Shown here piece by piece: positions 2,461 through 50,434 of a stretch of 64,000 bases of DNA. The notes beneath the pieces are model-generated. The model saw only the letters and a list, made by a program, of their open reading frames with translations, did no database searches and was not told where the DNA came from. How positions within the stretch are numbered: the stretch's first letter is position 1; each line of letters begins with the position of its first letter. Made by a program: the position numbers and the translations under genes. The DNA is taken from assembly GCF_024298765.1 (NCBI RefSeq), contig NZ_CP101210.1; one strand, given 5' to 3'. Source of the stretch: Escherichia coli (lineage in GTDB: Bacteria; Pseudomonadota; Gammaproteobacteria; Enterobacterales; Enterobacteriaceae).

Positions 2461-3055
2461 CCGTGAAATCCGTTGTTACAGCGGTGAGGTGCGTGCTGAG
2501 CGGCATGACGATAACCCGGCGCACATTATCGGTTATGGATCGGTGTTTGACTGTCGTTCTGAGCTGATATTCGGTTCATTCCGCGAAATCATCCGGCCCG
2601 GCGCTTTTGACGATGTGCTTGGTGATGATGTACGCGCACTGTTTAACCACGATCCTAATTTTATTCTTGGGCGTAGTGCAGCAGGCACGCTGAATCTTTC
2701 AGTTGATGAGCGCGGATTACGCTATGACATCCAGGCTCCGGAGACACAGACCATTCGTGATCTGGTGCTGGCCCCGATGCAACGTGGAGATATTAACCAG
2801 TCATCTTTCGCTTTCCGTGTCGCCCGTGACGGTGAGGAGTGGTATCAGGATGAGGACGGGGTTGTTATTCGCGAGATAACCCGCTTTTCCCGTCTGCTGG
2901 ATGTCAGTCCTGTGACATATCCTGCCTATCAGGAGGCTGACTCGGCTGTTCGCTCCATGAAAGCATGGCAGGAGGCGCGCAACAGTGGCGCGCTACAGAA
3001 AGCCATTAATCAACGTATGGCGCGTGAACGCGTCCTGACCCTTCTTAACGCGTAA
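2453..3055 (+). CDS. Prohead maturation protease (HK97 family)
   Basis: ATG at 2453 (MNDREIR...) overlapping the portal stop; position between portal and major capsid. Confidence 0.8.
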   Translation: MNDREIRCYSGEVRAERHDDNPAHIIGYGSVFDCRSELIFGSFREIIRPGAFDDVLGDDVRALFNHDPNFILGRSAAGTLNLSVDERGLRYDIQAPETQTIRDLVLAPMQRGDINQSSFAFRVARDGEEWYQDEDGVVIREITRFSRLLDVSPVTYPAYQEADSAVRSMKAWQEARNSGALQKAINQRMARERVLTLLNA

Positions 3056-3065
3056 AGGAAACATC

Positions 3066-4295
3066 ATGAAACTGCATGAACTGAAACAGAAACGTAATAC
3101 TATCGCAACTGACATGCGCGCCCTGAATGAAAAAATTGGTGATAACGCATGGACGGAAGAGCAGCGCACTGAGTGGAACAAAGCAAAATCCGAACTGGAA
3201 GCGCTTGATGAACGAATTGCACGCGAAGAAGAACTGCGTCGTCAGGATCAGGCGTACATTGAAAGCAATGAGGAAGAGCAGCGTCAGAATCTTGATCCGG
3301 AAAACAATCCGCAACAGGATGAGAAACGAGCTCAGGTTTTTGATAAGTGGATGCGTCACGGTGCCAGTGAGCTGACATCAGAAGAACGAAAGGCGTTGCG
3401 TGAACTTCGTGCCCAGGGTGTAGCTCAGGATGAAAAGGGCGGATATACCGTACCAGAAACATTCCTGGCGAAAGTTGTTGAGAAGATGAAATCCTACGGT
3501 GGCATCGCCAGTGTGGCGCAGATTCTGACCACTTCTGACGGTCGCACTATGGAGTGGGCAACAGCTGATGGTACTTCCGAAGTTGGTGTTCTGCTGGGCG
3601 AAAATGAAGAAGCCGGTGAAGAAGACACCGATTTCGGTATGGGAAGTCTTGGGGCGCTCAAAATGACATCGAAAATCATTCGTGTGTCTAATGAGTTGCT
3701 GCAGGACAGCGCGATCGATATGGAAGCTTATCTTGCCCGTCGCATTGCTGAACGTATTGGTCGTGGTGAAGCCCGTTATCTGATTCAGGGAACTGGTGCT
3801 GGTACGCCTAAACAACCCAAAGGGCTGGTCGCATCTGTGACCGGCACAACACAGACTGCCGCGGCAAATACGGTGAAGTGGCAGGAAATTCTGGCTCTGA
3901 AACACAGCATTGATCCTGCATATCGTCGCGGGCCGAAATTCCGCCTGGCGTTTAACGATAATACGCTGAAACTGATCAGTGAGATGGAAGACGGTCAGGG
4001 ACGCCCTTTATGGTTGCCGGATATTGTTGGTGTGGCACCTGCTTCAGTGTTGAATGTACCGTATGTCATTGATCAGGAAATTGATGATATCGGGGCGGGT
4101 AAAAAATTCATGTTCTGTGGTGACTTTGATCGCTTCATTATCCGTCGTGTGCGATACATGATTCTTAAACGTCTGGTTGAGCGTTACGCGGAATATGATC
4201 AGACTGGTTTTCTGGCCTTCCATCGTTTTGACTGTATCCTGGAAGACACCTCTGCCATTAAAGCGCTGGTGGGGAAAGGTAGCGTTGGTGGTTGA
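3066..4295 (+). CDS. Major capsid protein (HK97 fold, with charged N-terminal delta/scaffold domain)
   Basis: 409 aa; N-terminal ~100 residues highly charged and coiled-coil-like (EEQRTEWNKAKSELEALDERIAREEELRRQ), followed by capsid-like body; follows protease. Confidence 0.85.
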   Translation: MKLHELKQKRNTIATDMRALNEKIGDNAWTEEQRTEWNKAKSELEALDERIAREEELRRQDQAYIESNEEEQRQNLDPENNPQQDEKRAQVFDKWMRHGASELTSEERKALRELRAQGVAQDEKGGYTVPETFLAKVVEKMKSYGGIASVAQILTTSDGRTMEWATADGTSEVGVLLGENEEAGEEDTDFGMGSLGALKMTSKIIRVSNELLQDSAIDMEAYLARRIAERIGRGEARYLIQGTGAGTPKQPKGLVASVTGTTQTAAANTVKWQEILALKHSIDPAYRRGPKFRLAFNDNTLKLISEMEDGQGRPLWLPDIVGVAPASVLNVPYVIDQEIDDIGAGKKFMFCGDFDRFIIRRVRYMILKRLVERYAEYDQTGFLAFHRFDCILEDTSAIKALVGKGSVGG

Positions 4296-5585: not shown

Positions 5586-6142
5586 AACTGACGCCTGTTA
5601 TTGCTGCGCTGCGTGCCCGCTGCCCGTATTTTGAAAACCGGGTGGCAGGCGCGGCACAGTTCAAAAATCTGCCGGAGGTCGGAAAGCTGAGACTCCCGGC
5701 GGCGTATGTGGTACCGGGTGATGACTCTCCGGGAGAAAACAAAAGCCAGACCGACTACTGGCAGGAGCTGAAAGAGGGCTTCTCCGTGGTTGTCATACTG
5801 AGTAACGGGCGTGATGAGCGCGGTCAGTTTGCCTCGTATGATGTGGTGGACGATGTCCGGCAGATGCTCTTTAAGGCTCTGCTGGGCTGGAACCCGGAAG
5901 CGTGCGGTAACCCGATTACCTATGACGGCGGCACGCTGCTGGATCTGAATCGTCATGAGCTGATTTATCAGTTCGATTTTTCGGTCATCAGCGAGCTGAC
6001 CGAAGACGATACCCGCCAGCAGGATGACCTGAACAGTCTGGATGAACTGCGAACGCTGGCGATTGATGTTGATTATCTCGATCCCGGTAACGGGCCTGAC
6101 GGCGATATCGAACATCACACCGAAATAACCCTTCCTTCCTGA
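5582..6142 (+). CDS. Tail-completion/terminator-like protein (Mu gp37-like position)
   Basis: 186 aa ORF overlapping upstream stop; precedes tail sheath gene. Confidence 0.45.
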   Translation: MKLTPVIAALRARCPYFENRVAGAAQFKNLPEVGKLRLPAAYVVPGDDSPGENKSQTDYWQELKEGFSVVVILSNGRDERGQFASYDVVDDVRQMLFKALLGWNPEACGNPITYDGGTLLDLNRHELIYQFDFSVISELTEDDTRQQDDLNSLDELRTLAIDVDYLDPGNGPDGDIEHHTEITLPS

Positions 6143-6150
6143 GAATCTTC

Positions 6151-6321
6151 ATGTTTGTGAAACCTGTTAAAGGGCGGTCAGTTCCTGACCCTGCCCGCGG
6201 TGACCTTTTGCCCGCCGAGGGGCGAAATGTTGATGAGAACAACTACTGGCTGCGCCGTGAAGCAGCGGGTGATATCCGGCGCGTGAATGAAAAGGTGAAT
6301 ACCGATGACGATAAGCTTTAA
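6151..6321 (+). CDS. Small conserved phage protein upstream of tail sheath (56 aa)
   Basis: ATG at 6151, translation MFVKPVKGRSVPDPARGDLLPAEGRNVDENNYWLRREAAGDIRRVNEKVNTDDDKL; overlaps sheath start; not in ORF track (under 60 aa). Confidence 0.4.
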   Translation: MFVKPVKGRSVPDPARGDLLPAEGRNVDENNYWLRREAAGDIRRVNEKVNTDDDKL

Positions 6322-7801
6322 CACCATTCCGTCGAATACGCTGGTTCCGATTTTTTATGCGGAAATGGATAACCAGGCGGCGAATACTGCACAGGACAGC
6401 GGAGCATCGCTGCTGATTGGTCATGCCAATAACGGTGCAGAGATTGTTGCCAACAGTCTGGTGCTGATGCCATCGGCAGACTATGCACGCCAGATTTGTG
6501 GTGCGGGAAGTCAGCTGGCGCGTATGGTCGAGGCTTATCGCCAGACCGACCCGTTTGGTGAACTGTATGTGATTGCCGTTCCTGAATCCACGGGCGCGGC
6601 GGCAACAGTTACGCTGACGGTGACCGGCGCGGCAACCGAAACCGGCACGGTGAATGTTTATGTGGGACGTACCCGCGTGCAGGCTCCGGTGACCAACGGC
6701 GATAACGTCACGACGATTGCCAGCAGTATCCAGGATGCCATCAATGCCGTTCCGGCCCTGCCGTTTACGGCTTCATCTTCGGCAGGCGTGGTCACACTGA
6801 CCGCGCGTCATAAGGGGCTTTGCGGGAATGAAATTCCTGTCAGCCTCAATTACTACGGCTTTGGTGGGGGCGAAGTGCTGCCAGCGGGCGTACAGATTGC
6901 CGTGGCGACGGGGACCGCCGGTACGGGTGCTCCGGTTCTCACCGGCGCGGTGGCTGCAATGGCGGATGAGCCGTTTGATTATATCGGCCTGCCGTTCAAC
7001 GACACGGCCTCCGTTAACACGCTGGTGACCGAGATGAACGATACCAGCGGTCGCTGGAGCTATGCGCGTCAGCTGTATGGTCATGTGTATACGGCAAAGA
7101 TCGGCACGCTGTCAGAACTGGTGACCGCAGGTGACCAGTTTAACCAGCAGCACATTACCCTGGCGGGATACGAAAAAGAGACCCAGACGCCTGCCGACGA
7201 GCTGGCGGCAAGCCGTACCGCCCGCGCAGCGGTGTTTATTCGCAACGATCCGGCACGTCCCACGCAGACCGGTGAGCTGGTGGGTATGCTGCCTGCGCCG
7301 AAGGGGAAACGGTTCACGATGACTGAACAACAGACCCTGCTGTCTCATGGCGTGGCAACGGCGTATGTCGAAAGTGGGGTGCTGCGCATTCAGCGTGATG
7401 TCACCACGTACAGGAAAAACGCTTACGGTGTTGCGGATAACAGCTACCTCGACAGCGAGACGCTGCATACCAGTGCGTATGTACTGCGCAAACTGAAATC
7501 CGTCATTACCAGTAAGTACGGGCGTCACAAGCTTGCCAGCGACGGTACCCGCTTTGGTCCCGGTCAGGCGATTGTCACCCCGGCGGTGATCAAAGGGGAA
7601 CTGCTGGCAACCTACCGTCAGCTTGAGCGTGCGGGGATCGTGGAAAACTACGAACTGTTCAAGCAGTACCTGGTTGTGGAGCGTGATGCCAGCGATCCGA
7701 ACCGCCTGAACACGCTGTTCCCGCCTGACTATGTTAACCAGTTGCGTGTCTTTGCCGTGGTTAACCAGTTCCGTCTTCAGTATTCAGAGGAGTCTGCATA
7801 A
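6305..7801 (+). CDS. Tail sheath protein (contractile tail, Mu-like)
   Basis: 498 aa; followed by tube, chaperone with frameshift, and tape measure in the canonical myovirus order. Confidence 0.85.
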   Translation: MTISFNTIPSNTLVPIFYAEMDNQAANTAQDSGASLLIGHANNGAEIVANSLVLMPSADYARQICGAGSQLARMVEAYRQTDPFGELYVIAVPESTGAAATVTLTVTGAATETGTVNVYVGRTRVQAPVTNGDNVTTIASSIQDAINAVPALPFTASSSAGVVTLTARHKGLCGNEIPVSLNYYGFGGGEVLPAGVQIAVATGTAGTGAPVLTGAVAAMADEPFDYIGLPFNDTASVNTLVTEMNDTSGRWSYARQLYGHVYTAKIGTLSELVTAGDQFNQQHITLAGYEKETQTPADELAASRTARAAVFIRNDPARPTQTGELVGMLPAPKGKRFTMTEQQTLLSHGVATAYVESGVLRIQRDVTTYRKNAYGVADNSYLDSETLHTSAYVLRKLKSVITSKYGRHKLASDGTRFGPGQAIVTPAVIKGELLATYRQLERAGIVENYELFKQYLVVERDASDPNRLNTLFPPDYVNQLRVFAVVNQFRLQYSEESA

Positions 7802-8157
7802 TGGCCCGTATCGGGGGAACCTGTTATTTCAAAATTGACGGTCAGCAGCTATCGCTGACCGGCGGCATTGAGGTGCCCATGAACAGGATGGTTAATGATG
7901 ACATCATCGGCCTGGACGGTTCAGTGGACCGCAAGGAAACTCACCGTGCGCCTTATGTCAAAGGGACCTTCAAGGTGCCGAAGAATTTTCCGGTGGGCAA
8001 AATCACCTCGTCTGATGAGATGACAATCACTGCCGAGCTGGCGAACGGTCAGGTCTATGTACTGTCGTCTGCTTGGCTGCACGGCGAAGCGAACCATAAT
8101 GCCGAAGAAGGCACGGTCGATCTTGAGTTCCACGGTGAAGAAGGGGATTACCAGTAA
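7801..8157 (+). CDS. Tail tube protein
   Basis: 118 aa directly after sheath, start overlapping sheath stop (TAATG). Confidence 0.8.
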   Translation: MARIGGTCYFKIDGQQLSLTGGIEVPMNRMVNDDIIGLDGSVDRKETHRAPYVKGTFKVPKNFPVGKITSSDEMTITAELANGQVYVLSSAWLHGEANHNAEEGTVDLEFHGEEGDYQ

Positions 8158-8426
8158 TGAAAGAGCTTGAGTTAAAGAAACCGATTACCGCTCATGGCGA
8201 GACACTCTCCGTACTGGAGTTTGATGAGCCCACCGGGAAAGATGTCCGCGAGCTGGGGTATCCCTACCAGATGAATCAGGATGAGTCCGTCAGACTTCTG
8301 GCGCATGTGGTATCGAAATATATTGTGCGGCTGGCGAAAGTGCCGCAAAGCTCTGTCGACCAGATGTCTCCGGCAGACCTGAATGCAGCGGCGTGGCTTG
8401 TGGCTGGTTTTTTCCTCCAGGCCTGA
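8157..8426 (+). CDS. Tail assembly chaperone (short form)
   Basis: 89 aa ORF immediately before tape measure; ends just after a T-TTT-TTC slippery heptamer. Confidence 0.7.
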   Translation: MKELELKKPITAHGETLSVLEFDEPTGKDVRELGYPYQMNQDESVRLLAHVVSKYIVRLAKVPQSSVDQMSPADLNAAAWLVAGFFLQA

Positions 8427-13841: not shown

Positions 13842-14886
13842 ATTTCAGCGCCCGACGCTGGCAGAAAATATCAGTATGCTCCGTAACGATTTATTCGCCA
13901 GGCTGGACGTCAGCGACACGCTCCGGCGCATGGATGAAGACGTGCGGGCAAAGGTGTATGCGGCGGCGCTGCATACGGTTTACGGTTACATCGATTATCT
14001 GGCAATGAACATGCTGCCTGATCTGTGCGATGAGTCCTGGCTGGCGCGACATGCTGCGATGAAACGGTGTCCGCGCAAGGGGGCCACGGCTGCCAGCGGG
14101 TATATGCGCTGGGAAGGTGTCAGCGATGGCCTGAAGGTGACCGCCGGGAGTGTTATTCAGCGCGATGACCTGGTTCAGTACACGGCAACTGCCGATGCAA
14201 CCAGCACTGGTGGTGTCCTGCGTGTGCCGATCACTTGCTCAACTACAGGCGCGGTCGGTAACGCTGACGACGGTACGGCATTAATCCTGGTCACACCGGT
14301 GAATGGTCTGCCGTCTTCCGGTGTGGCTGACACCCTGACAGGCGGATTTGATACTGAAGAGCTGGAAACGTGGCGCGCCCGCGTCATTGAGCGGTATTAC
14401 TGGACGCCTCAGGGCGGGGCTGACGGGGACTATGTCGTCTGGGCTAAAGAAGTGCCCGGCATTACCCGCGCATGGACATACCGACACTGGATGGGAACGG
14501 GGACTGTCGGTGTGATGATTGCCAGCAGTGACCTGATTAATCCCATTCCGGAAGAGTCAACGGAAACGGCGGCAAGACAACATATCGAGCCACTGGCCCC
14601 GGTGGCAGGCTCTGATTTGTATGTATTCAGGCCGGTGGCGCATAAAGTGGATTTTCATATCCGCGTGACGCCGGACACACCGGAAATACGGGCTGCCATC
14701 ACCGCCGAGTTGCGTTCGTTCCTGCTGCGTGATGGTTATCCGCAGGGAGAACTGAAGGTGTCACGTATCAGTGAAGCGATTTCCGGTGCGAACGGGGAAT
14801 ACAGCCATCAGTTGCTTGCACCGGCAGACAATATCGCCATTGCAAAAAATGAACTGGCGGTACTGGGGACGATTTCATGGACGTGA
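13828..14886 (+). CDS. Baseplate J-like protein (Mu gp47-like)
   Basis: 352 aa; position within baseplate cluster. Confidence 0.75.
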
Positions 14887-15461
14887 CAAACGATGATTAC
14901 ATCCGTCTGTTGTCGGCACTGTTGCCCCCCGGTCCGGCGTGGTCAGCCAGCGATCCGGCGATTGCCGGTGCGGCACCGTCATTAACCCGCGTTCATCAGC
15001 GTGCGGATGCCCTGATGCGGGAGCTGGATCCGCGCACTACCACTGAACTGATAAACCGCTGGGAGCGTCTGTGCGGTCTGCCGGATGAATGTATTCCCGC
15101 AGGGACACAGACCCTTCGCCAGCGTCAGCAACGGCTGGATGCGAAGGTTAACCTGTCGGGTGGCATCAACGAGGATTTTTATCTTGCACAGCTTGCTGCC
15201 CTGGGCAGACCAGATGCCACCATCACGCGATACGACAAAAGCACGTTCACCTGCTCATCGGCCTGTACTGACGCTGTGAACGCGCCTGAATGGCGGTATT
15301 ACTGGCAGGTCAACATGCCAGCCGCCACCAACACCACCTGGATGACATGTGGCGATCCCTGTGATTCCGCACTGCGTATCTGGGGCGACACCGTTGTCGA
15401 GTGTGTGCTTAACAAACTCTGCCCGTCGCATACCTACGTAATTTTTAAATATCCGGAGTAA
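14877..15461 (+). CDS. Tail protein, Mu gp48 / YmfQ-like
   Basis: 194 aa, same size and position as e14 YmfQ immediately upstream of the tail-fibre genes. Confidence 0.65.
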
Positions 15462-15464
15462 TCC

Positions 15465-16115
15465 ATGCATCGTATAGACACGAAAACCGCGCAGAAGGAT
15501 AAGTTCGGCGCGGGTAAGAACGGTTTTACCCGTGGTAACCCCCAGACCGGCACGCCTGCCACCGATCTGGATGATGACTACTTTGACATGTTGCAGGAGG
15601 AGCTTTGCAGCGTTGTGGAGGCGTCCGGTGCCAGCCTGGAGAAGGGGCGGCACGACCAGCTGCTTACCGCGCTTCGTGCGCTGCTGTTAAGCCGCAAGAA
15701 TCCGTTTGGTGATATCAAATCGGATGGCACGGTGAAAACGGCTCTCGAAAACCTTGGTTTGGGAGAAGCGGCGAAAAGGGATGTGGGCACAGGAGAAAAT
15801 CAGATACCGGATATGTCAGCCTGGAAAAGAAATCCGAGTTCTAATCGCTGGAGAAAATTGCCTGATGGAACCATCATTCAAATGGGAATATCAGCATCAG
15901 GGCCATTAGGCTCACCTGTAAATATCACCCTGCCGATATCTTTCAGCAATACCAATTATTGTGTTGTTGCATCGTACGATAATGCACGGTCAGGTGTGTC
16001 AACAATGGTTAGTTTTGCAGCGTTACCTGTTTCACCATCGCAATTTTCCCTGATGTCATCTGTGACTGAGCAAGGAATAAATCCTTTTGCTTACTGGATT
16101 GCTTTTGGAGATTAA
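15465..16115 (+). CDS. Side tail fibre protein (constant N-terminus fused to currently expressed variable C-terminus)
   Basis: 216 aa; invertase crossover site lies inside the gene at 15742..15767 (codons for LENLGLGE); sequence after the site is noticeably more AT-rich. Confidence 0.75.
15742..15767. repeat. Invertase crossover site (left), gix/pix-like 26-bp site
   Basis: CTCTCGAAAACCTTGGTTTGGGAGAA; its 14-bp arm TTGGTTTGGGAGAA is the exact inverted copy of 17607..17620. Confidence 0.6.
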
Positions 16116-16118
16116 TAA

Positions 16119-16538
16119 ATGGATAGATACTTCTATTCACAAAAAGAAAATGGTTTTTTTACCGATTTAAATAAAGCACCTTCAGATGCTGTTGAGATAA
16201 CCACGGATGAATGGCTGTTACTACTGGATGGTCAGGATAATGGCATGAAAATAGTCAGCAATCAGGAGGGATATCCGGTTTTGACAGAGCAACCACCTTT
16301 ATCAAAAGAAAACCTTATTGCATTGGCGGATTTGAAAAAAAGAAAACTTATTAATGAAGCCAACGAGCACATGAACAGCAGACAATGGCCAGGTAAAGCG
16401 GCGATTGGTCGCCTGAAAGGTGAGGAACTGGCGCAATATAATTTGTGGCTGGATTATCTGGACGCACTGGAACTGGTCGATACTTCCGGTGCGCCAGATA
16501 TTGAATGGCCTACGCCTCCGGCAGTTCAGGCCAGATGA
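16119..16538 (+). CDS. Tail fibre assembly protein (expressed orientation)
   Basis: 139 aa directly after the fibre gene; AT-rich like the expressed fibre C-terminus. Confidence 0.75.
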   Translation: MDRYFYSQKENGFFTDLNKAPSDAVEITTDEWLLLLDGQDNGMKIVSNQEGYPVLTEQPPLSKENLIALADLKKRKLINEANEHMNSRQWPGKAAIGRLKGEELAQYNLWLDYLDALELVDTSGAPDIEWPTPPAVQAR

Positions 16539-17115
16539 CGTCCGGCGCGGTGCTGGTATCTGTTGCCGTCACCGCGTCAATGTAATCCAGCACAGCGTTA
16601 AGTCGGGTGTTTTCTGTCTGCATCAGCTTCCGCCCGGCCTGCAATTTCAGTTGAATCAGACTAATGGAAGCCATTGCAGTATCAATCAGTGACTGACGCT
16701 GTGCTTCTGCCGCGTCTACTGCGGCGCTATGCTGTGCCTCAGTATCGGTCACCCATTTCTCACCATCCCATTTATCGTATGGCGTTAATGGGGCGATAGT
16801 GGTTGTATTTTCAGGGTAATCACCCGGAACTGTGATTTCTTTGGTATCTCCCGTTTCGGTACTATAGACAACTTCACCGCGATGGTCTGGCACATATTCC
16901 CATGAATTTAAATCTACAGAGCGACAGATTGCATAACCAGCTTTATGTGTACCTGGTGCATCCAAACAGGAACATGCCGGGATACCGACGCCGACAGCGA
17001 GATATTCAGTTGATGTAGAAATATATTCCCGCGTTTCACCATCATAATTATAAACGGTAATATCTCCCGCTTTTATGGCAATGAGTTCGCTATTTAATAC
17101 AGCTTTATTCATCAT
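16510..17115 (-). CDS. Tail fibre assembly protein (alternative, expressed after inversion)
   Basis: 201 aa on opposite strand, converging on and overlapping the 3' end of the other assembly gene. Confidence 0.75.
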   Translation of the reverse strand: MMNKAVLNSELIAIKAGDITVYNYDGETREYISTSTEYLAVGVGIPACSCLDAPGTHKAGYAICRSVDLNSWEYVPDHRGEVVYSTETGDTKEITVPGDYPENTTTIAPLTPYDKWDGEKWVTDTEAQHSAAVDAAEAQRQSLIDTAMASISLIQLKLQAGRKLMQTENTRLNAVLDYIDAVTATDTSTAPDVIWPELPEA

Positions 17116-17632
17116 GCGGCCCTCACAATATAATTAAAAGCGATGTTACGAGGACGAGTTTCTGTACCTACATTTTCACTAATTTCACCATAACGTTTAA
17201 CACTACGAGAGCTAATAGCTCGTAGTGAGGAAGGCACCTTAAGACCGGGTTCGTCCGTTTTAACTATTCCCCCGTCACCGTATGTAGCCAGTATTCCTGG
17301 GTTTACTCCTTCCCGTGCACTTCCTGCGGCGAGTCCGTCCCCTGTCCATAATTCCATATAGTGTGCATGGTCCAAAATTGTGTGTGGCTGCCAATTAAGC
17401 AAAGCGCGACCAGTATCAATCCCGCGACCGTCATCCCAGCCACGAATAAATTCACCGCGTAAATCAGGCAATTTATTGGTCGGGTAAGCCTTTGCCAGTT
17501 CCGGGTATTCTTCAGCAGAAAAAGCCGCACCGTTGCATTTCAGCCAGCCTGTTGGCGGAGTGGCGGAAGGCCACGGAACAGGCACACCAACGGGTAATGC
17601 CGAACCTTCTCCCAAACCAACGTTTATGAAAA
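17112..17632 (-). CDS. Alternative tail-fibre variable C-terminal segment (silent in this orientation)
   Basis: Minus-strand ORF 17112..17660 reads through the right crossover site; contains the conserved fibre motif PWPSATPPTGWLKCNGAAF...YPELAKAYP; would fuse to the constant N-terminus on inversion. Confidence 0.65.
17607..17632. repeat. Invertase crossover site (right), gix/pix-like 26-bp site
   Basis: TTCTCCCAAACCAACGTTTATGAAAA, about 55 bp upstream of the invertase start. Confidence 0.6.
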
Positions 17633-17686
17633 TGCAGAAATAACGAGCAAATGGCATCATTCCTGCTTTTGTCAGGGAGATCTACC

Positions 17687-18241
17687 ATGCTTATTGGCTA
17701 TGTACGTGTGTCAACAAATGACCAGAACACAGATCTACAGCGTAATGCGCTGAACTGTGCAGGATGCGAGCTGATTTTTGAAGACAAGATAAGCGGTACA
17801 AAGTCTGAAAGGCCGGGACTGAAAAAACTGCTCAGGACATTATCGGAAGGTGACACTCTGGTTGTCTGGAAGCTGGATCGGCTGGGGCGTAGTATGCGGC
17901 ATCTGGTCATTCTGGTTGAGGAGTTGCGCGAACGTGGCGTTAATTTTCGCAGCCTGACGGATGCTATTGATACCAGCACACCGATGGGGCGTTTTTTCTT
18001 TCATGTGATGGGTGCCCTAGCTGAAATGGAACGAGAACTGATTGTTGAACGAACAAAAGCTGGACTGGAAGCTGCTCGCGCACAGGGACGAATTGGTGGA
18101 CGTCGTCCCAAACTTACACCAGAACAATGGGCGCAGGCTGGGCGATTAATTGCATCAGGCGTTCCTCGCCAGAAGGTGGCGATCATCTATGATGTTGGTA
18201 TATCGACACTGTATAAGAAGTTTTCGGTCGGAGATAAATGA
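17687..18241 (+). CDS. pin: Serine DNA invertase, Pin/Gin/Cin family
   Basis: MLIGYVRVSTNDQ active-site serine motif at N-terminus, C-terminal HTH; very close to e14 PinE as recalled; ATG at 17687 inside ORF-track 17651..18241. Confidence 0.9.
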   Translation: MLIGYVRVSTNDQNTDLQRNALNCAGCELIFEDKISGTKSERPGLKKLLRTLSEGDTLVVWKLDRLGRSMRHLVILVEELRERGVNFRSLTDAIDTSTPMGRFFFHVMGALAEMERELIVERTKAGLEAARAQGRIGGRRPKLTPEQWAQAGRLIASGVPRQKVAIIYDVGISTLYKKFSVGDK

Positions 18242-18298
18242 AACCGTAGCACGTCGTATGCAAGATCGTGCTGCGGTTTATGCTTATCACTTAAAGAC

Positions 18299-19117
<819 letters not shown>

Positions 19118-19478
19118 TCATTGCAAGGGCTCACAACCAGTAGTGTTGAGAAAACCATCGGAGAAATGAGGCTAAGCCTTTGAATTTACATAGTACAAAA
19201 AAGATACTTTTCCTCATAATGTGAGCTAATTTTATGTTTCGTTTGATGATTGGACCGGTCTCGAAAACCGTAGACACATAGTATGCGTTAATTTATGAAC
19301 AAACTACTTGTCTGCTGTTTTTCTGTCATTAGTCGTATATAGAATGATTCTCTATGCCTAACAAAGCATCACCAGTGCTAGATTACGTTGTAGTCACTGT
19401 TTAAATATCCAGATAAAACATTTCCTTCTGGGTTGAATGAGTGATAAAGTTTCACCCATTAGACCCCTTGGAGGAATT

Positions 19479-20912
19479 ATGTCTGAATTTGAAGTGTTGG
19501 CACAGCATCTGCTGAAGGAAGCCGAGGCGGAAGAAAAGCTGCGACAGGAAAATGATAAAAAGCTTATCGAGAAAGTGCTGGAAATCTATGATCAGAAGTA
19601 TGTGGCTGAATTACTGAGAAAAGTCGGAAAAAATGAGTGGAGCCGTGAAACCATTAACCGCTGGATTAATGGCAAGTGTTTACCAAAATCGTTGACTTCA
19701 GTAGAAGAGTCTCTTCTGCGTAAGATGCTACCAGAACCACCTGCAAACCATCCGGAATATGCTTTCCGCTTCATTGACTTATTTGCTGGAATTGGAGGGA
19801 TACGGAAAGGTTTTGAGGCCATTGGAGGCCAGTGTGTTTTTACCAGTGAATGGAATAAAGATGCTGTGCGTACATACAAGGCCAACTGGTTTAACGATGA
19901 ACAGGTGCATAAATTCAATCTCGATATTCGGGAAGTCACGCTGAGTGATAAAACCGATGTATTGGAAACGGATGCTTATGCATATATTGATGAGCATGTG
20001 CCGGATCATGATGTGCTTCTTGCGGGGTTCCCGTGCCAGCCATTTAGCCTTGCTGGTGTTAGTAAGAAAAACTCACTTGGTCGTGCGCATGGTTTTGAAT
20101 GTGAAGCACAAGGAACACTTTTTTTTGACGTGGCACGTATTATACGAGCAAAAAAACCGGCAATTTTTGTGCTGGAAAATGTCAAAAATCTGAAGAGCCA
20201 TGATAAGGGTAAAACTTTCAAAGTCATTATGGAGACCCTTGACGAGCTGGGCTACGAAGTTGCCGATGCTGCAGAAATGGGAAAAAACGATCCAAAGATT
20301 ATCGATGGGAAGCATTTTTTGCCTCAGCATCGTGAACGCATTGTTCTGGTCGGATTTAGACGAGATCTGAATATTCACAAGGGGTTTACCTTGCGTGATA
20401 TCAGTCGTTTTTATCCGGAACACCGCCCATCATTTGGTGAATTGCTGGAGCCTGTAGTCGACAGTAAATATATACTTACGCCAAAACTATGGGAGTACCT
20501 TTATAACTACGCCAAAAAGCATGCAGCCAAGGGGAATGGTTTTGGCTTTGGGTTGGTCAATCCTGAGAATAAGGAAAGCATTGCACGCACACTTTCTGCC
20601 AGATATCACAAAGACGGATCAGAAATTCTTATTGATCGTGGTTGGGATATGGCAACGGGAGAGGCTGACTTTATGAATGAGAGTAATCAGGCTCGTCGAC
20701 CACGCAGGCTGACTCCCCGAGAGTGCGCACGCCTTATGGGATTTGAAAAACCTGGAGGGAAACCATTCCGTATTCCGGTTTCAGATACTCAGTCATATCG
20801 GCAGTTCGGTAACTCAGTTGTGGTGCCAGTATTTGAAGCTGTTGCCAGACTTCTGGAACCCTATATCCTCAAAGCTGTTTCTGCTGATGCTGGTAAGACT
20901 GGGCAGCCTTGA
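19479..20912 (+). CDS. ecoRIIM: DNA cytosine-5 methyltransferase, M.EcoRII/Dcm type (predicted CCWGG)
   Basis: C5-MTase motifs [10 protein letters not shown] (I), [11 protein letters not shown] (IV), ENVKNL (VI), [10 protein letters not shown] (X); N-terminus [12 protein letters not shown] resembles M.EcoRII; 477 aa from ATG at 19479 with GGAGG RBS. Confidence 0.9.
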
Positions 20913-20918
20913 GAACAT

Positions 20919-20941
20919 CTCCCGGCCTTTTAAGCCGGGAG
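20919..20941. terminator. Bidirectional hairpin between convergent methyltransferase and endonuclease genes
   Basis: CTCCCGGC-CTTTTAA-GCCGGGAG, 8-bp stem, located in the 34-bp gap between the two stop codons. Confidence 0.5.
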
Positions 20942-20946
20942 TCAGC

Positions 20947-22161
20947 CTATGATAGTTCAGCGTAAAGCTCTATCAGCTCAGTAATGAATGCTCCGAGCGT
21001 TATTAATTCTTCTCTAACTGCTTCTGGGTATTTTTTATGTAAAGTTGATGGTACAACGAGTCTGACACCCGCATCTTTCATTTCTCGGTATTGTGCTGAA
21101 GAAACACCTTCTTGCAGTGTAAATAAATGTACCTGATGGATTTTATCTGCTTCATTCAGTATCTGACGCCAGCGATCTTTGCAGGTGGTCTTTACTGCCA
21201 GCATACGTAAGTTTTCTACAGGAAATTCAACGTTATGATATGCCTCTGCTGAAGGAAACAGGAAATCTGGTTTTTTATTACCTTCAGTAACTGCCTGAGT
21301 GGAGAAATGCCGTAGTCCGTGCTCGATAAAAAGCTTCTCTAGGTGAAGTTCAAGTGATTTGCCTGCCCTTGATTTACGTCGATTACTGACAGAGTTGGCT
21401 AATGCAATAAACTCATCTACAGAATCGAATCCTTTCTTAATAATATCAAGAACATGTAATTCCTCGACGAGTAGAAAAATATCATACTCGACACGCCGAC
21501 GGTCAATCAGTTGCTCATCTGGATCCTTGGAGTTTTTAGCATAATGGCCAGCAGCATATTGAATAATTTCGTTTCCAGAAGGAAAACGCTTCTTCCAGTC
21601 TTCAGGAATAACATATTTATGATTTACTGGAGTTTGCTGAAGAGACAATCCGCCCAAAATTTGTCCGGCAGGGCCGGAAATTAGGGTTCCAGGTATGATT
21701 TCGCCAATAGCAGACTCGATGATATCCTCTTCATCGGGATTGACGCAGACCCATATATCTACCTCGGAACAGTCAGTGTTCTGTTCGTTTAACCTGAAAG
21801 CAAGAATTGTGAGGGCTCCTGTATTTTCAGGGTTCTGTAATGGACTTCCTCTCCCCCAGCGCGTAATTCTTTTTTCGTTTCGGGTCTTACCAAAATAACG
21901 GTTGTTGTAATAAATTGCGCGTGCTTGGGTATCAGGGCAATCATGGGATGATACATGCGCAGTAAGGAAGACTGAAGGGTTCAGTTCGCGAGTATGATTG
22001 ATAGATGGAAAAAGCTTTTCAACGATATTTGAGGGGATATAAAGTCCGACCTGATGGCCACCTGTTGCGCCTGTGTCGTTTGCAGAAAGGCGTTTGATGT
22101 AGATAAAGTAATTCCCGCTTGCGATATCAAGCAGCCAGTTATGAAAAACCGACATATACAT
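20947..22161 (-). CDS. ecoRIIR: Type IIE restriction endonuclease, EcoRII-like
   Basis: 404 aa, same length as EcoRII; N-terminus MSVFHNWLLDIASGNYFIYIKRLSANDTGATGGHQVGLYIP closely matches EcoRII as recalled; convergent with the methyltransferase. Confidence 0.9.
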   Translation of the reverse strand: MYMSVFHNWLLDIASGNYFIYIKRLSANDTGATGGHQVGLYIPSNIVEKLFPSINHTRELNPSVFLTAHVSSHDCPDTQARAIYYNNRYFGKTRNEKRITRWGRGSPLQNPENTGALTILAFRLNEQNTDCSEVDIWVCVNPDEEDIIESAIGEIIPGTLISGPAGQILGGLSLQQTPVNHKYVIPEDWKKRFPSGNEIIQYAAGHYAKNSKDPDEQLIDRRRVEYDIFLLVEELHVLDIIKKGFDSVDEFIALANSVSNRRKSRAGKSLELHLEKLFIEHGLRHFSTQAVTEGNKKPDFLFPSAEAYHNVEFPVENLRMLAVKTTCKDRWRQILNEADKIHQVHLFTLQEGVSSAQYREMKDAGVRLVVPSTLHKKYPEAVREELITLGAFITELIELYAELS

Positions 22162-22389: not shown

Positions 22390-22752
22390 TGGTGGAGCTG
22401 GCGGGAGTTGAACCCGCGTCCGAAATTCCTACATCCTCGGTACTACATGCTTAGTCAGTCTTTACATTCGCTTGCCAGCTGCGGACGGACACGCCACTAA
22501 CAAACTAGCCTGATTAAGTTTTAACGCTTCAACCCCAGGCAGGGCTTCCACGCGATCTCTTTTGGGTTTGACCTCTCTTGATCCCCGTCCTAAGAGCGGA
22601 GGCTAGGGAGAGAGGGCTCTAAGCAGGTTATTAAGCTGCTAAAGCGTAGTTTTCGTCGTTTGCGACTATTTTTTGCGGCTTTTTACGAGGCCAACCGCCC
22701 CTCGGCATGCACCTTGGGTTTCGCAAATCCCGTCGAATCCAGAATCAGCCCC
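22390..22752 (-). ncRNA. ssrA: tmRNA (SsrA), 363 nt
   Basis: Reverse complement matches E. coli tmRNA from GGGGCUGAUUCUGGAUUCGACGGG to CCAGCUCCACCA; tag reading frame encodes ANDENYALAA. Confidence 0.95.
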
Positions 22753-22966: not shown

Positions 22967-23449
22967 TTAACGGTGGGCGTTTTTCATGATACGCGCTTTA
23001 TCCACCTGCCATTCGCGTTCTTTGATATCTGAACGTTTATCATGCTGTTTCTTACCTTTGGCGACGCCGATTTTCACTTTGCACCAGGCATTTTTCCAGT
23101 ACAGGGAGAGCGCCACTACGGTATAGCCTTCTCGATTGACGCGACCGTACAATGAGTCCAGTTCGCGCTGGTTGAGAAGTAACTTGCGGGTACGGGTAGG
23201 ATCGCACACCACATGCGTGGAGGCCACAGCCATTGGCGTGATGTTAGCGCCAAACAGAAATGCCTCTCCGTCACGCAGAAGGACGTAGCTGTCGCTGATA
23301 TTGGCTTTTCCTGCACGCAGGGATTTAACCTCCCAGCCTTGCAGGGCAAGTCCCGCCTCGAACTCTTCTTCGATAAAGTATTCGTGCCGGGCGCGCTTGT
23401 TAAGCGCGATGGTCGCTGAACCAGGTTTATGTGCTTTTTTCTTCGTCAT
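22967..23449 (-). CDS. smpB: SsrA-binding protein SmpB
   Basis: 160 aa, matches SmpB; adjacent to ssrA. Confidence 0.95.
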
Positions 23450-50239: not shown

Positions 50240-50316
<77 letters not shown>

Positions 50317-50358
50317 AATTTGCACGGCAAATTTGAAGAGGTTTTAACTACATGTTAT

Positions 50359-50434
50359 GGGGCTATAGCTCAGCTGGGAGAGCGCCTGCTTTGCACGCAG
50401 GAGGTCTGCGGTTCGATCCCGCATAGCTCCACCA
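50359..50434 (+). tRNA. tRNA-Ala (anticodon TGC)
   Basis: GGGGCTATAGCTCAGCTGGGAGAGCGCCTGCTTTGCACGCAGGAGGTCTGCGGTTCGATCCCGCATAGCTCCACCA. Confidence 0.95.

Follow-up and report, generated by a model that had tools for sequence, protein, structure and literature searches.

A Pin-Type Tail-Fibre Inversion Switch in an Escherichia coli Prophage

Introduction

At the end of a prophage tail operon in the window (the whole 64-kb stretch of Escherichia coli DNA that was analyzed), a tail-fibre gene and a second, reversed fibre tip are separated by two tail-fibre assembly genes and bounded by two short sites in inverted orientation (Table 1). This layout raises the question of whether the DNA between the sites is an invertible tail-fibre segment, as a first-pass annotation of the sequence had proposed, and of how such a segment would relate to inversion systems that have already been described. 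The proposal is borne out by the sites themselves, by the constant N-terminus of the fibre, by the two pairs of tip and assembly genes and by the neighboring recombinase gene, and the locus is best explained as a switch for site-specific DNA inversion, of the Pin type (Gin/Cin/Hin/Pin family), that is located where the operon ends (probability about 0.93). The feature is already known: it is a textbook phase-variation switch, its genes have been named by the NCBI pipeline, and it matters little beyond correct annotation.

Table 1. Coordinates of the crossover sites, fibre modules, invertase gene and associated elements in the window.
Feature	Position	Strand	Details
Tail-fibre gene, whole ORF	15465-16115	+	LGLGE in frame at left site
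Tail-fibre constant N-terminal part, 101 codons, ending ...ALENLGLGE	15465..15767	+	Outside segment up to crossover; common to both fibre forms
Left crossover site, pix-type, 26 bp	15742..15767		CTCTCGAAAACC-TT-GGTTTGGGAGAA; core dinucleotide TT at 15754-15755
Variable fibre tip A, now expressed, gp53-like C-terminal domain	15768..16115	+	Pfam Gp53-like_C PF21882, E=8.1e-13, residues 131-215
Tail-fibre assembly gene A, paired with tip A; 139 aa	16119..16538	+	Inside segment; phrog_188 tail fiber assembly protein, E=1.7e-52
Tail-fibre assembly gene B, paired with tip B; 201 aa, TfaE-like	16510..17115	-	phrog_105 tail fiber assembly, E=1.2e-97
Variable fibre tip B, phage tail collar domain	17112..17606	-	Now unjoined to fibre N-terminus; Pfam Collar PF07484, phrog_523
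Right crossover site, pix-type, 26 bp	17607..17632		TTCTCCCAAACC-AA-CGTTTATGAAAA; core dinucleotide AA at 17619-17620
Short leader, ATG at 17660 or 17657	17633..17660	-	Outside segment; in frame with whichever tip faces pin
pin, serine DNA invertase, 184 aa	17687..18241	+	Outside segment; Pfam Resolvase + HTH_7; phrog_125
Putative Fis-bound recombinational enhancer	17708..17771		Inside 5′ end of pin; homology only

Crossover Sites

The two 26-bp sites had been described as resembling gix, pix and cix and as sharing an exact 14-bp inverted arm, and this description can be made more precise: each site is the same, base for base (26/26), as its counterpart in the P segment of the K-12 element e14 (NC_000913, 1207778 for the left site and 1209605 for the right), from which it follows that the system is one already known. 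As for Fis-dependent invertases, the sites are inverted with respect to each other, and each has a 2-bp core flanked by two imperfect 12-bp half-sites. Within a site, the half-sites agree at 9/12 positions in one case and at 8/12 in the other, and the left and right sites match at 21/26 positions when aligned in the inverted register. In that register the core dinucleotide is also the same, AA at the right site being TT on the other strand, and a core that is common to both sites enables the staggered ends to be religated after rotation.

The 14-mer TTGGTTTGGGAGAA occurs in two exact copies in the 64-kb window, one on each strand; further copies, which the first-pass annotation had named as a point against its proposal, were absent from the window even when up to two mismatches were allowed. 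Extended to 20 nt, the inverted repeat is 95% complementary, and no longer one was found within 15300-18300. Across 64 kb, chance alone would give about 7.6 exact 14-nt inverted pairs (about 0.017 within 3 kb), so that the arm by itself might be taken for a chance match, or for a mere reflection of paralogy between two fibre genes, without any role in recombination. This explanation is refuted by the full 26-bp dyad consensus, which matches at these two places only (0.00 matches in 100 shuffles), by natural inversions that break exactly at the sites (see section Orientation in Related Genomes) and by the presence of an invertase gene 55 bp from the right site. The 26-bp consensus likewise yields no additional crossover site in a multi-site, shufflon-like arrangement. 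Relaxed regular-expression matches (27209 and 51903) look unlike the sites and were rejected as crossover sites.

Fibre Tips and Assembly Genes

The arrangement of the genes is that of a host-range switch, with a constant N-terminus outside the segment and, inside it on opposite strands, alternative C-termini with their cognate assembly genes. PHROG tail fibre families match residues 1-103 of the fibre. The two assembly genes converge and their ends overlap by 29 bp, and the stop codon of tip B overlaps the start of assembly gene B (ATGA). PHROGs, Pfam and a PDB sequence search were informative in place of NCBIfam, in which no family was found for either fibre tip or either assembly protein. 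For tip B, the Pfam Collar match (E=4.7e-15) was obtained on the fibre fused in silico, and the match to phrog_523 (tail collar fiber protein) has E=1.6e-70. On the basis of the LGLGE codons at the left site and the NVGLGE codons at the right site, it had been proposed that inversion swaps the C-terminus and its assembly protein in frame. The reading frames agree with this proposal, NVGLGE being encoded within the minus-strand ORF 17112-17660, as does inversion in silico, which converts the present 216-aa fibre into an uninterrupted, in-frame fibre of 265 aa.

GC content is 42.5% in the expressed half of the segment (43.4% in tip A), 48.6% in the unexpressed half, 56.1% in the constant part of the fibre and 51.0% in the window. 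The expressed part had been called markedly more AT-rich than the silent alternative; the difference is real, but at about 6 points it is modest. The accompanying suggestion that the modules were acquired separately is supported by mosaicism, in that homology to K-12 e14 ends at 15768, one base beyond the left site. It is evident from the mosaic tips that exchange of receptor-binding modules takes place at the recombination site, a phenomenon that is already known.

Pin and the Putative Enhancer

The product of pin has the size (about 180-190 aa) and the organization of a small serine recombinase, in which an N-terminal catalytic domain with the active-site serine (Pfam Resolvase, residues 3-135, E=7.7e-52) is followed by a C-terminal helix-turn-helix (HTH_7, residues 138-179, E=1.6e-12), and it matches phrog_125 (DNA invertase) with E=6.9e-97. 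It is identical to K-12 PinE at 173/184 residues (94%) and to Mu Gin at 78.7%, and the latter alignment is gap-free over residues 1-178 and pairs Ser9 with Ser9 of Gin. In a consensus scan, the interval from the right site to pin contained nothing that resembles a promoter.

The putative enhancer was recognized from two 15-mers of the form G-N13-C (17708-17722 and 17757-17771), which constitute the ends of a 64-bp stretch and, measured from the right site, are centered at distances of about 96 and 145 bp. Both 15-mers occupy the same gene positions in pinE and Mu gin; they are degenerate motifs within conserved coding sequence, and their conservation alone is no proof of function. The G-N13-C cores start 49 bp apart, a figure to be read with the exact putative Fis cores as approximate, and the Fis sites of Hin are 48 bp apart from center to center. 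The geometry of the stretch agrees with that of the published Hin enhancer, which is 65 bp long, has a Fis site at each end and lies about 100 bp from hix.

By analogy with the family, Pin dimers would bind both 26-bp sites, and an invertasome would be assembled with Fis on the enhancer in the 5′ end of pin. Both sites would then be cut at the central 2 bp (TT/AA), one pair of subunits would be rotated by 180° and the ends would be religated; both the dependence on Fis and the enhancer and this chemistry are taken from the family, whose members also depend on DNA supercoiling. Strand exchange of this kind would flip about 1.87 kb. The first 101 codons of the fibre and its transcription signals would stay fixed, and the flip would thus join them in frame either to the gp53-like tip with gene A (216 aa) or to the collar tip with gene B (265 aa). 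A lysogen population would shed particles of two receptor specificities. As in other members of the family, the two tips probably recognize different receptors, and this particular copy is probably capable of switching.

Orientation in Related Genomes

In a census of complete E. coli genomes, 22 had the segment arranged as in the window and 28 had it flipped. The first-pass annotation had named orientation as a check on its proposal, and public genomes do contain both orientations; some pairs of isolates from the same lineage differ by exactly this inversion. CX07 and CX15, which belong to one lineage, are identical over 8,845 bp save an exact inversion between sites that are the same as those of the window. 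In EC974 and EC1515, a one-base difference between the inner arms travels with the segment, so that the exchange must lie within TTGGTTT (site positions 13-19), an interval that includes the central dinucleotide. Close relatives (CX07/CX15 and EC974/EC1515) carry the segment in either orientation, and the breaks lie at the cores of the sites. In K-12, mixed orientation has been detected within clonal cultures by sequencing and PCR (PMC4272514), and recombination at TTGGTTTGGGAGAAGG by PinE, PinQ and PinR flips the e14 P segment, which is 1797 bp long (PMC12529663).

Comparison With Known Inversion Systems

The gene order of the e14 P segment is the same as that of the window (ymfQ, fibre constant part, tip, tfa, reversed tfa, reversed tip, pin), and the orientation is that of the K-12 reference, with the gp53-like tip on the fibre N-terminus. 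Inversion switches in Mu, P1 and Salmonella were described before that of e14, whose invertible P segment was reportedly described by Plasterk and van de Putte in 1985. Nucleotide identity to e14 is 96.7% over 14877-15768 (ymfQ-stfP), the flanking DNA is 92-97% identical, and the product of assembly gene B is identical to K-12 TfaE at 181/201 residues; both sites and the invertase mark the switch module as orthologous to that of e14. The contents of the segments differ: the fibre with tip A is identical to its e14 counterpart at 134/234 aligned positions, nearly all of them in the constant part, and tip A has no megablast-level similarity to the StfP tip; the product of assembly gene A is identical at 73/146 aligned positions; and the middle of tip B differs. 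In addition, the perfect inverted repeat is 14 bp in the window and 16 bp in e14, and the site cores are 1865 bp apart in the window, compared with a published e14 segment of 1797 bp.

In the Mu G segment, as here, the constant fibre N-terminus lies outside, two pairs of tip and assembly genes lie inside, and the invertase gene is located just beyond the right site, although the segment is longer (about 3 kb) and the tips are much longer. Mu gix also has 26 bp and the same AAACC-NN-GGTTT center, but differs in its core (TC/GA instead of TT/AA) and in the outer positions of the half-sites. The Salmonella Hin/hix system has a recombinase of the same subfamily, sites that are likewise 26 bp long and a Fis-bound enhancer, whose counterpart here is putative, but it flips a promoter and contains hin inside the segment, whereas here coding ends are recombined and pin is outside.

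The carrier of the switch is an intact-looking E. coli myovirus-type prophage at ssrA that is distinct from e14. It adjoins the tmRNA gene (ssrA, 22390-22752), and its upstream structural genes (terminase, portal, protease, capsid, sheath, tape measure and baseplate) look intact; the left end of the prophage lies beyond the window, and "intact-looking" refers to the structural operon. An EcoRII restriction-modification pair and a GIY-YIG gene follow pin, and NCBIfam held no family for the GIY-YIG protein or the restriction enzyme. K-12 e14 is a defective lambdoid element in icd, with pseudogenes, mcrA beside pinE, and icdC. Identification of the prophage as e14 itself was rejected, given ssrA in place of icd, the EcoRII pair and GIY-YIG gene in place of mcrA, and intact-looking head and tail genes in place of pseudogenes; the switch module is therefore common to both elements, whereas the prophages are different.

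Minus-Strand Leader ORF and Alternative Explanations

Together with the codons of the outer arm, the short leader on the minus strand encodes 17-18 residues, M(M)PFARYFCIFINVGLGE, and translation in both orientations gives a minus-strand ORF of 181/182 aa now and of 132/133 aa after inversion. This ORF had been described as a promoterless ORF encoding NVGLGE at the right site. The coding assignment stands and the start codon (17657/17660) is located outside the segment, but the absence of a promoter is unproven: a sigma-70 and terminator consensus scan of 15300-18400 gave sites no commoner than in shuffles, with none near pin or the leader, and a scan that does no better than shuffles neither supports nor refutes the term. 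As read from the sequence, AGGA stands 0 to 3 nt from the leader ATGs, a poor spacing for a ribosome-binding site. K-12 has a near-identical leader; the equivalent ORF in e14 is named stfE, and the chimera formed by inversion is called StfE2. The chimera is claimed to be functional in K-12, where StfE2 is reported to block T2 adsorption after inversion of the P segment (Kirigo et al., 2025; PMC12529663).

The K-12 findings suggest a different reading of the locus, as mainly an anti-phage device of the host and not a host-range device of the phage, in which the leader and the gp53-like tip would form a free 132-aa receptor-masking protein as claimed for StfE2. The leader is in frame with either tip and is conserved in K-12, but most of its sequence is fixed by the crossover site and by the region upstream of pin, so that conservation is no evidence of coding. 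The poor AGGA spacing, the lack of a promoter-like site near the leader in the scan and the difference of the tip from the K-12 tip also argue against such a role, as does the dependence of the K-12 result largely on plasmid overexpression and docking (PMC12529663). The structural operon, unlike that of defective e14, looks intact, which makes fibre function the simpler reading, and a mainly anti-phage role is unlikely. Still less probable is that the locus is a frozen relic, in which the sites and pin have been kept but inversion of this copy has ceased, for instance through silencing or inactivity of pin. The failure of the consensus scan to find a promoter-like site upstream of pin would fit such a state; Pin, however, is full length, retains Ser9 and is identical at 183/184 residues to Pin of KSC1031 and at 176/184 to Pin of CX07/CX15, the pair that differs by inversion. 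Furthermore, both sites are intact and identical to the active e14 sites, the two orientations are about evenly split among genomes, and inversion can also be carried out in trans by further Pin-type invertases of the same cell (PMC12529663).

A Pin-type inversion switch of the fibre might also be combined with a masking function. In an intact prophage, each flip could have two outputs, changing the virion tip and fusing the other tip to the 17-codon leader as a free receptor-masking protein that excludes outside phages. This extension by analogy with K-12 is unlikely; if it were true, host range and superinfection exclusion would toggle together.

The inversion switch has a direct bearing on annotation. 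RefSeq names the genes of the nearest relatives stfP, tfaE and pinE, and the two orientations yield different fibre gene calls, several of which are marked as partial or frameshifted. Caution is warranted in assembly and annotation, as isolates of the same lineage may differ by the flip alone.

Organization of the Inversion Switch

Sequence comparison and public genomes support the assignment of the ~1.87-kb segment between two 26-bp sites to the Hin/Gin/Cin/Pin inversion systems, as an orthologue of the P segment of the Escherichia coli K-12 cryptic prophage e14 that is carried by a different, apparently complete prophage. Switches of this kind are already known and are routinely annotated.

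Features of the switch and its downstream flank in the window
Feature	Coordinates	Strand	Description
Left site	15742-15767		CTCTCGAAAACC-TT-GGTTTGGGAGAA
Right site	17607-17632		TTCTCCCAAACC-AA-CGTTTATGAAAA
Fibre gene	15465-16115	+	216 aa; crosses left site at LGLGE codons
Assembly gene A	16119-16538	+	139 aa; follows fibre gene; tail-fibre assembly family (PHROG)
Assembly gene B	16510-17115	-	201 aa; tail-fibre assembly family (PHROG)
Tip B ORF	17112-17660	-	Crosses right site at NVGLGE
pin	17687-18241	+	184 aa; next gene after tip B ORF
Candidate enhancer 15-mers	17708-17722; 17757-17771		G-N13-C; within 5′ end of pin
GIY-YIG gene	18299-19072	-	257 aa; directly after pin
EcoRII-type restriction-modification pair	19437-22161		Cargo between pin and prophage end
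ssrA	22390-22752		tmRNA (tag ANDENYALAA); downstream end of prophage
smpB	22967-23449		Beside ssrA, just past prophage

In each site, two 12-bp half-sites flank a 2-bp core and form an imperfect dyad. When one site is inverted relative to the other, 21 of the 26 positions are the same in both, and these cover the core as well as all of the inner arm. The inverted repeat reaches 20 nt at 95% complementarity, the longest such repeat found in 15300-18300. The shared 14-mer has no third occurrence in the window, even when up to two mismatches are tolerated; by chance, a 14-nt inverted pair is expected about 7.6 times in 64 kb and about 0.017 times within 3 kb. When the 26-bp dyad consensus was searched for, exactly these two sites matched, and 100 shuffles gave no match. 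The first-pass annotation, which had called them pix-like inverted sites, is thus borne out, and both are e14 sites rather than merely similar ones.

The 184-residue Pin has a Resolvase catalytic domain and an HTH_7 domain, matches the PHROG family 'DNA invertase' (E=6.9e-97) and is 78.7% identical to Mu Gin, with the active-site Ser9 conserved. Translation of the ORFs recovers the peptides that had been noted at the sites. Inversion in silico between the cores joins the first 101 fibre codons in frame to the minus-strand ORF, yielding a 265-aa fibre with the 201-aa assembly gene directly downstream, in agreement with the earlier proposal that fibre C-terminus and assembly protein are swapped together. 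The currently expressed tip (tip A) carries a Gp53-like C-terminal domain (E=8.1e-13), and the alternative (tip B) a phage tail collar domain (E=4.7e-15).

The two assembly genes are convergent and overlap by 29 bp (16510-16538). An 18-nt inverted repeat (16448-16465/16574-16591; 83% complementarity) lies within the C-terminal coding parts of both, where the translations are alike (LWLDYLDAL... and LNAVLDYIDAV...). In some genomes, RefSeq marks fibre or assembly genes of the switch as partial or frameshifted pseudogenes (6066-6377 and 7098-8238 in record L001; 2566-2874 in L003), which seems to be at least partly an annotation effect of orientation or unfamiliar tips and not true decay.

Relationship to e14 and Prophage Context

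In E. coli, the top-matching genes bear the names stfP, tfaE and pinE, those of prophage e14. When the e14 region of K-12 MG1655 was aligned directly to the window, both 26-bp sites were identical, PinE matched Pin at 173 of 184 residues, TfaE matched the 201-aa protein at 181 of 201, and the constant region from ymfQ into the fibre gene showed 96.7% identity. The published e14 repeat, TTGGTTTGGGAGAAGG, includes the shared 14-mer (PMC12529663).

The prophage itself is not e14. It lies at ssrA, whereas e14 lies at icd; its structural genes appear intact, whereas e14 has pseudogenes instead; and pin is followed by the GIY-YIG gene and the restriction-modification pair in place of mcrA. The late operon upstream of the switch is uninterrupted in the window, running from the terminase large subunit (truncated where the window begins), portal, protease and major capsid protein through connector proteins, sheath and tape measure to the baseplate hub, V, gp46-like, J/gp47-like and YmfQ proteins. 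Because ssrA directly follows the prophage, it is likely the attachment site. The prophages of strains KSC1031 and EC1515 are likewise at ssrA and the relative in strain CX07 adjoins dusA, with its own integrase, which indicates that the same switch module is carried by prophages at different integration sites.

Inversion in Public Genomes

Public genomes were used in place of the PCR proposed in the first-pass annotation, and both orientations were found. At the left junction, 15 genomes carry the window's form as contiguous sequence and 513 carry the form predicted once the segment has inverted; a count of the complete 2.9-kb arrangement, restricted to the module pair of the window, gave 22 genomes in the window's orientation and 28 in the flipped one. 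The genomes of strains CX07 and CX15, of equal length (4,949,018 bp), are identical over 8,845 bp apart from a single exact inversion, whose bounding sites are the same as those of the window; their Pin matches the window Pin at 176 of 184 residues. In the urinary isolates EC974 and EC1515 (Taiwan), identical flanking proteins enclose a related segment in opposite orientations, and a single base distinguishes the two inner arms (GGTTTGGG vs GGTTTTGG). As this base travels with the segment and the outer arms remain in place, exchange is confined to TTGGTTT (site positions 13-19, including the core dinucleotide), as predicted for a serine invertase making a staggered cut at the central 2 bp (PMC3798978). 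By list membership, JE86-ST05 and JE86-ST02, and the O103:H2 strains 129 and 12009, also fall on opposite orientation lists. In clonal K-12 cultures, both e14 orientations coexist, as seen by sequencing and PCR (Goldberg et al., 2014; PMC4272514), and the e14 segment is inverted by PinE, PinQ and PinR (Kirigo et al., 2025; PMC12529663).

Strain APEC E18005 has two copies of such a switch: the chromosomal copy (NZ_CP126946.1) is in the flipped arrangement, and the copy on a second replicon of 205 kb (NZ_CP126947.1; 204,838 bp) has the window-type junction. Since Pin-type invertases act in trans (PMC12529663), cross-talk between these copies is possible.

Model for Inversion

The window provides the sites, cores, reading frames and intact invertase gene, and natural breakpoints fall at the sites in public genomes. 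By analogy with the family, Pin dimers on both sites would, on supercoiled DNA, enter a synapse with an enhancer occupied by Fis; all four strands would be cut at the core, half of the tetramer would rotate by 180°, and the ends would be religated (PMC3798978). The candidate enhancer is a 64-bp stretch bounded by two 15-mers, whose centres lie ~96 and ~145 bp away from the right site; pinE and Mu gin have both 15-mers at equivalent places in the gene. Because the stretch doubles as conserved protein-coding DNA, it is treated as a candidate and not as an established enhancer. Its geometry agrees with that of the Hin enhancer, which is 65 bp long with Fis sites at both ends and lies ~100 bp from a hix site (PMC3798978).

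Leader ORF and Tip Modules

The description of the minus-strand ORF as promoterless is not established: its start codon (17657 or 17660) is outside the segment, so that with each flip the other tip also becomes fused to a leader of 17 codons (181 aa now, 132 aa after inversion). The fusion may be a functional phage-blocking protein, given that its K-12 counterpart, the chimera StfE2, is claimed to block adsorption of phage T2 (Kirigo et al., 2025; PMC12529663). However, the leader sequence is largely set by the recombination site itself, its ribosome-binding context, as read from the sequence, is poor, and a consensus scan found no promoter near it; for these reasons, a StfE2-like function is kept as a minority reading. 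In the Mu record (L008), the ORF annotated for the currently unexpressed S′ tip (2576-3562) likewise has its start codon outside the segment, just past gixR (G-segment boundary, 3534). The parallel could reflect a by-product of the site sequence or a general feature.

Nucleotide homology to K-12 ends at 15768, one base beyond the left site; it picks up once more within assembly gene A and later within tip B (16371-17164; 17403). These breaks suggest that the tips are mosaic modules, probably swapped both inside genes and at, or close to, the site, which fits the earlier view that they were acquired separately. GC content points the same way (expressed half, 42.5%; unexpressed half, 48.6%; constant part, 56.1%): the expressed half is AT-richer, as had been claimed, but the contrast is modest rather than marked.

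Cargo and Neighboring Genes

The GIY-YIG protein is annotated by RefSeq as 'LEM-3-like GIY-YIG domain' and matches phrog_5356, a family of unknown function (E=2.3e-143). The restriction-modification pair comprises a 491-aa cytosine-5 methyltransferase (NCBIfam PRK10458, 927 bits) and a convergent 404-aa endonuclease matching EcoRII (PDB 1na6, E=3e-243). The same EcoRII-type cargo, flanked likewise, is present in 128 E. coli genomes; K-12 e14 has mcrA at the equivalent position. Farther along, adjacent tRNA-Ile(GAT) and tRNA-Ala(TGC) genes (50240-50434), arranged as in a ribosomal RNA operon spacer, belong to ordinary chromosomal context unrelated to the switch.
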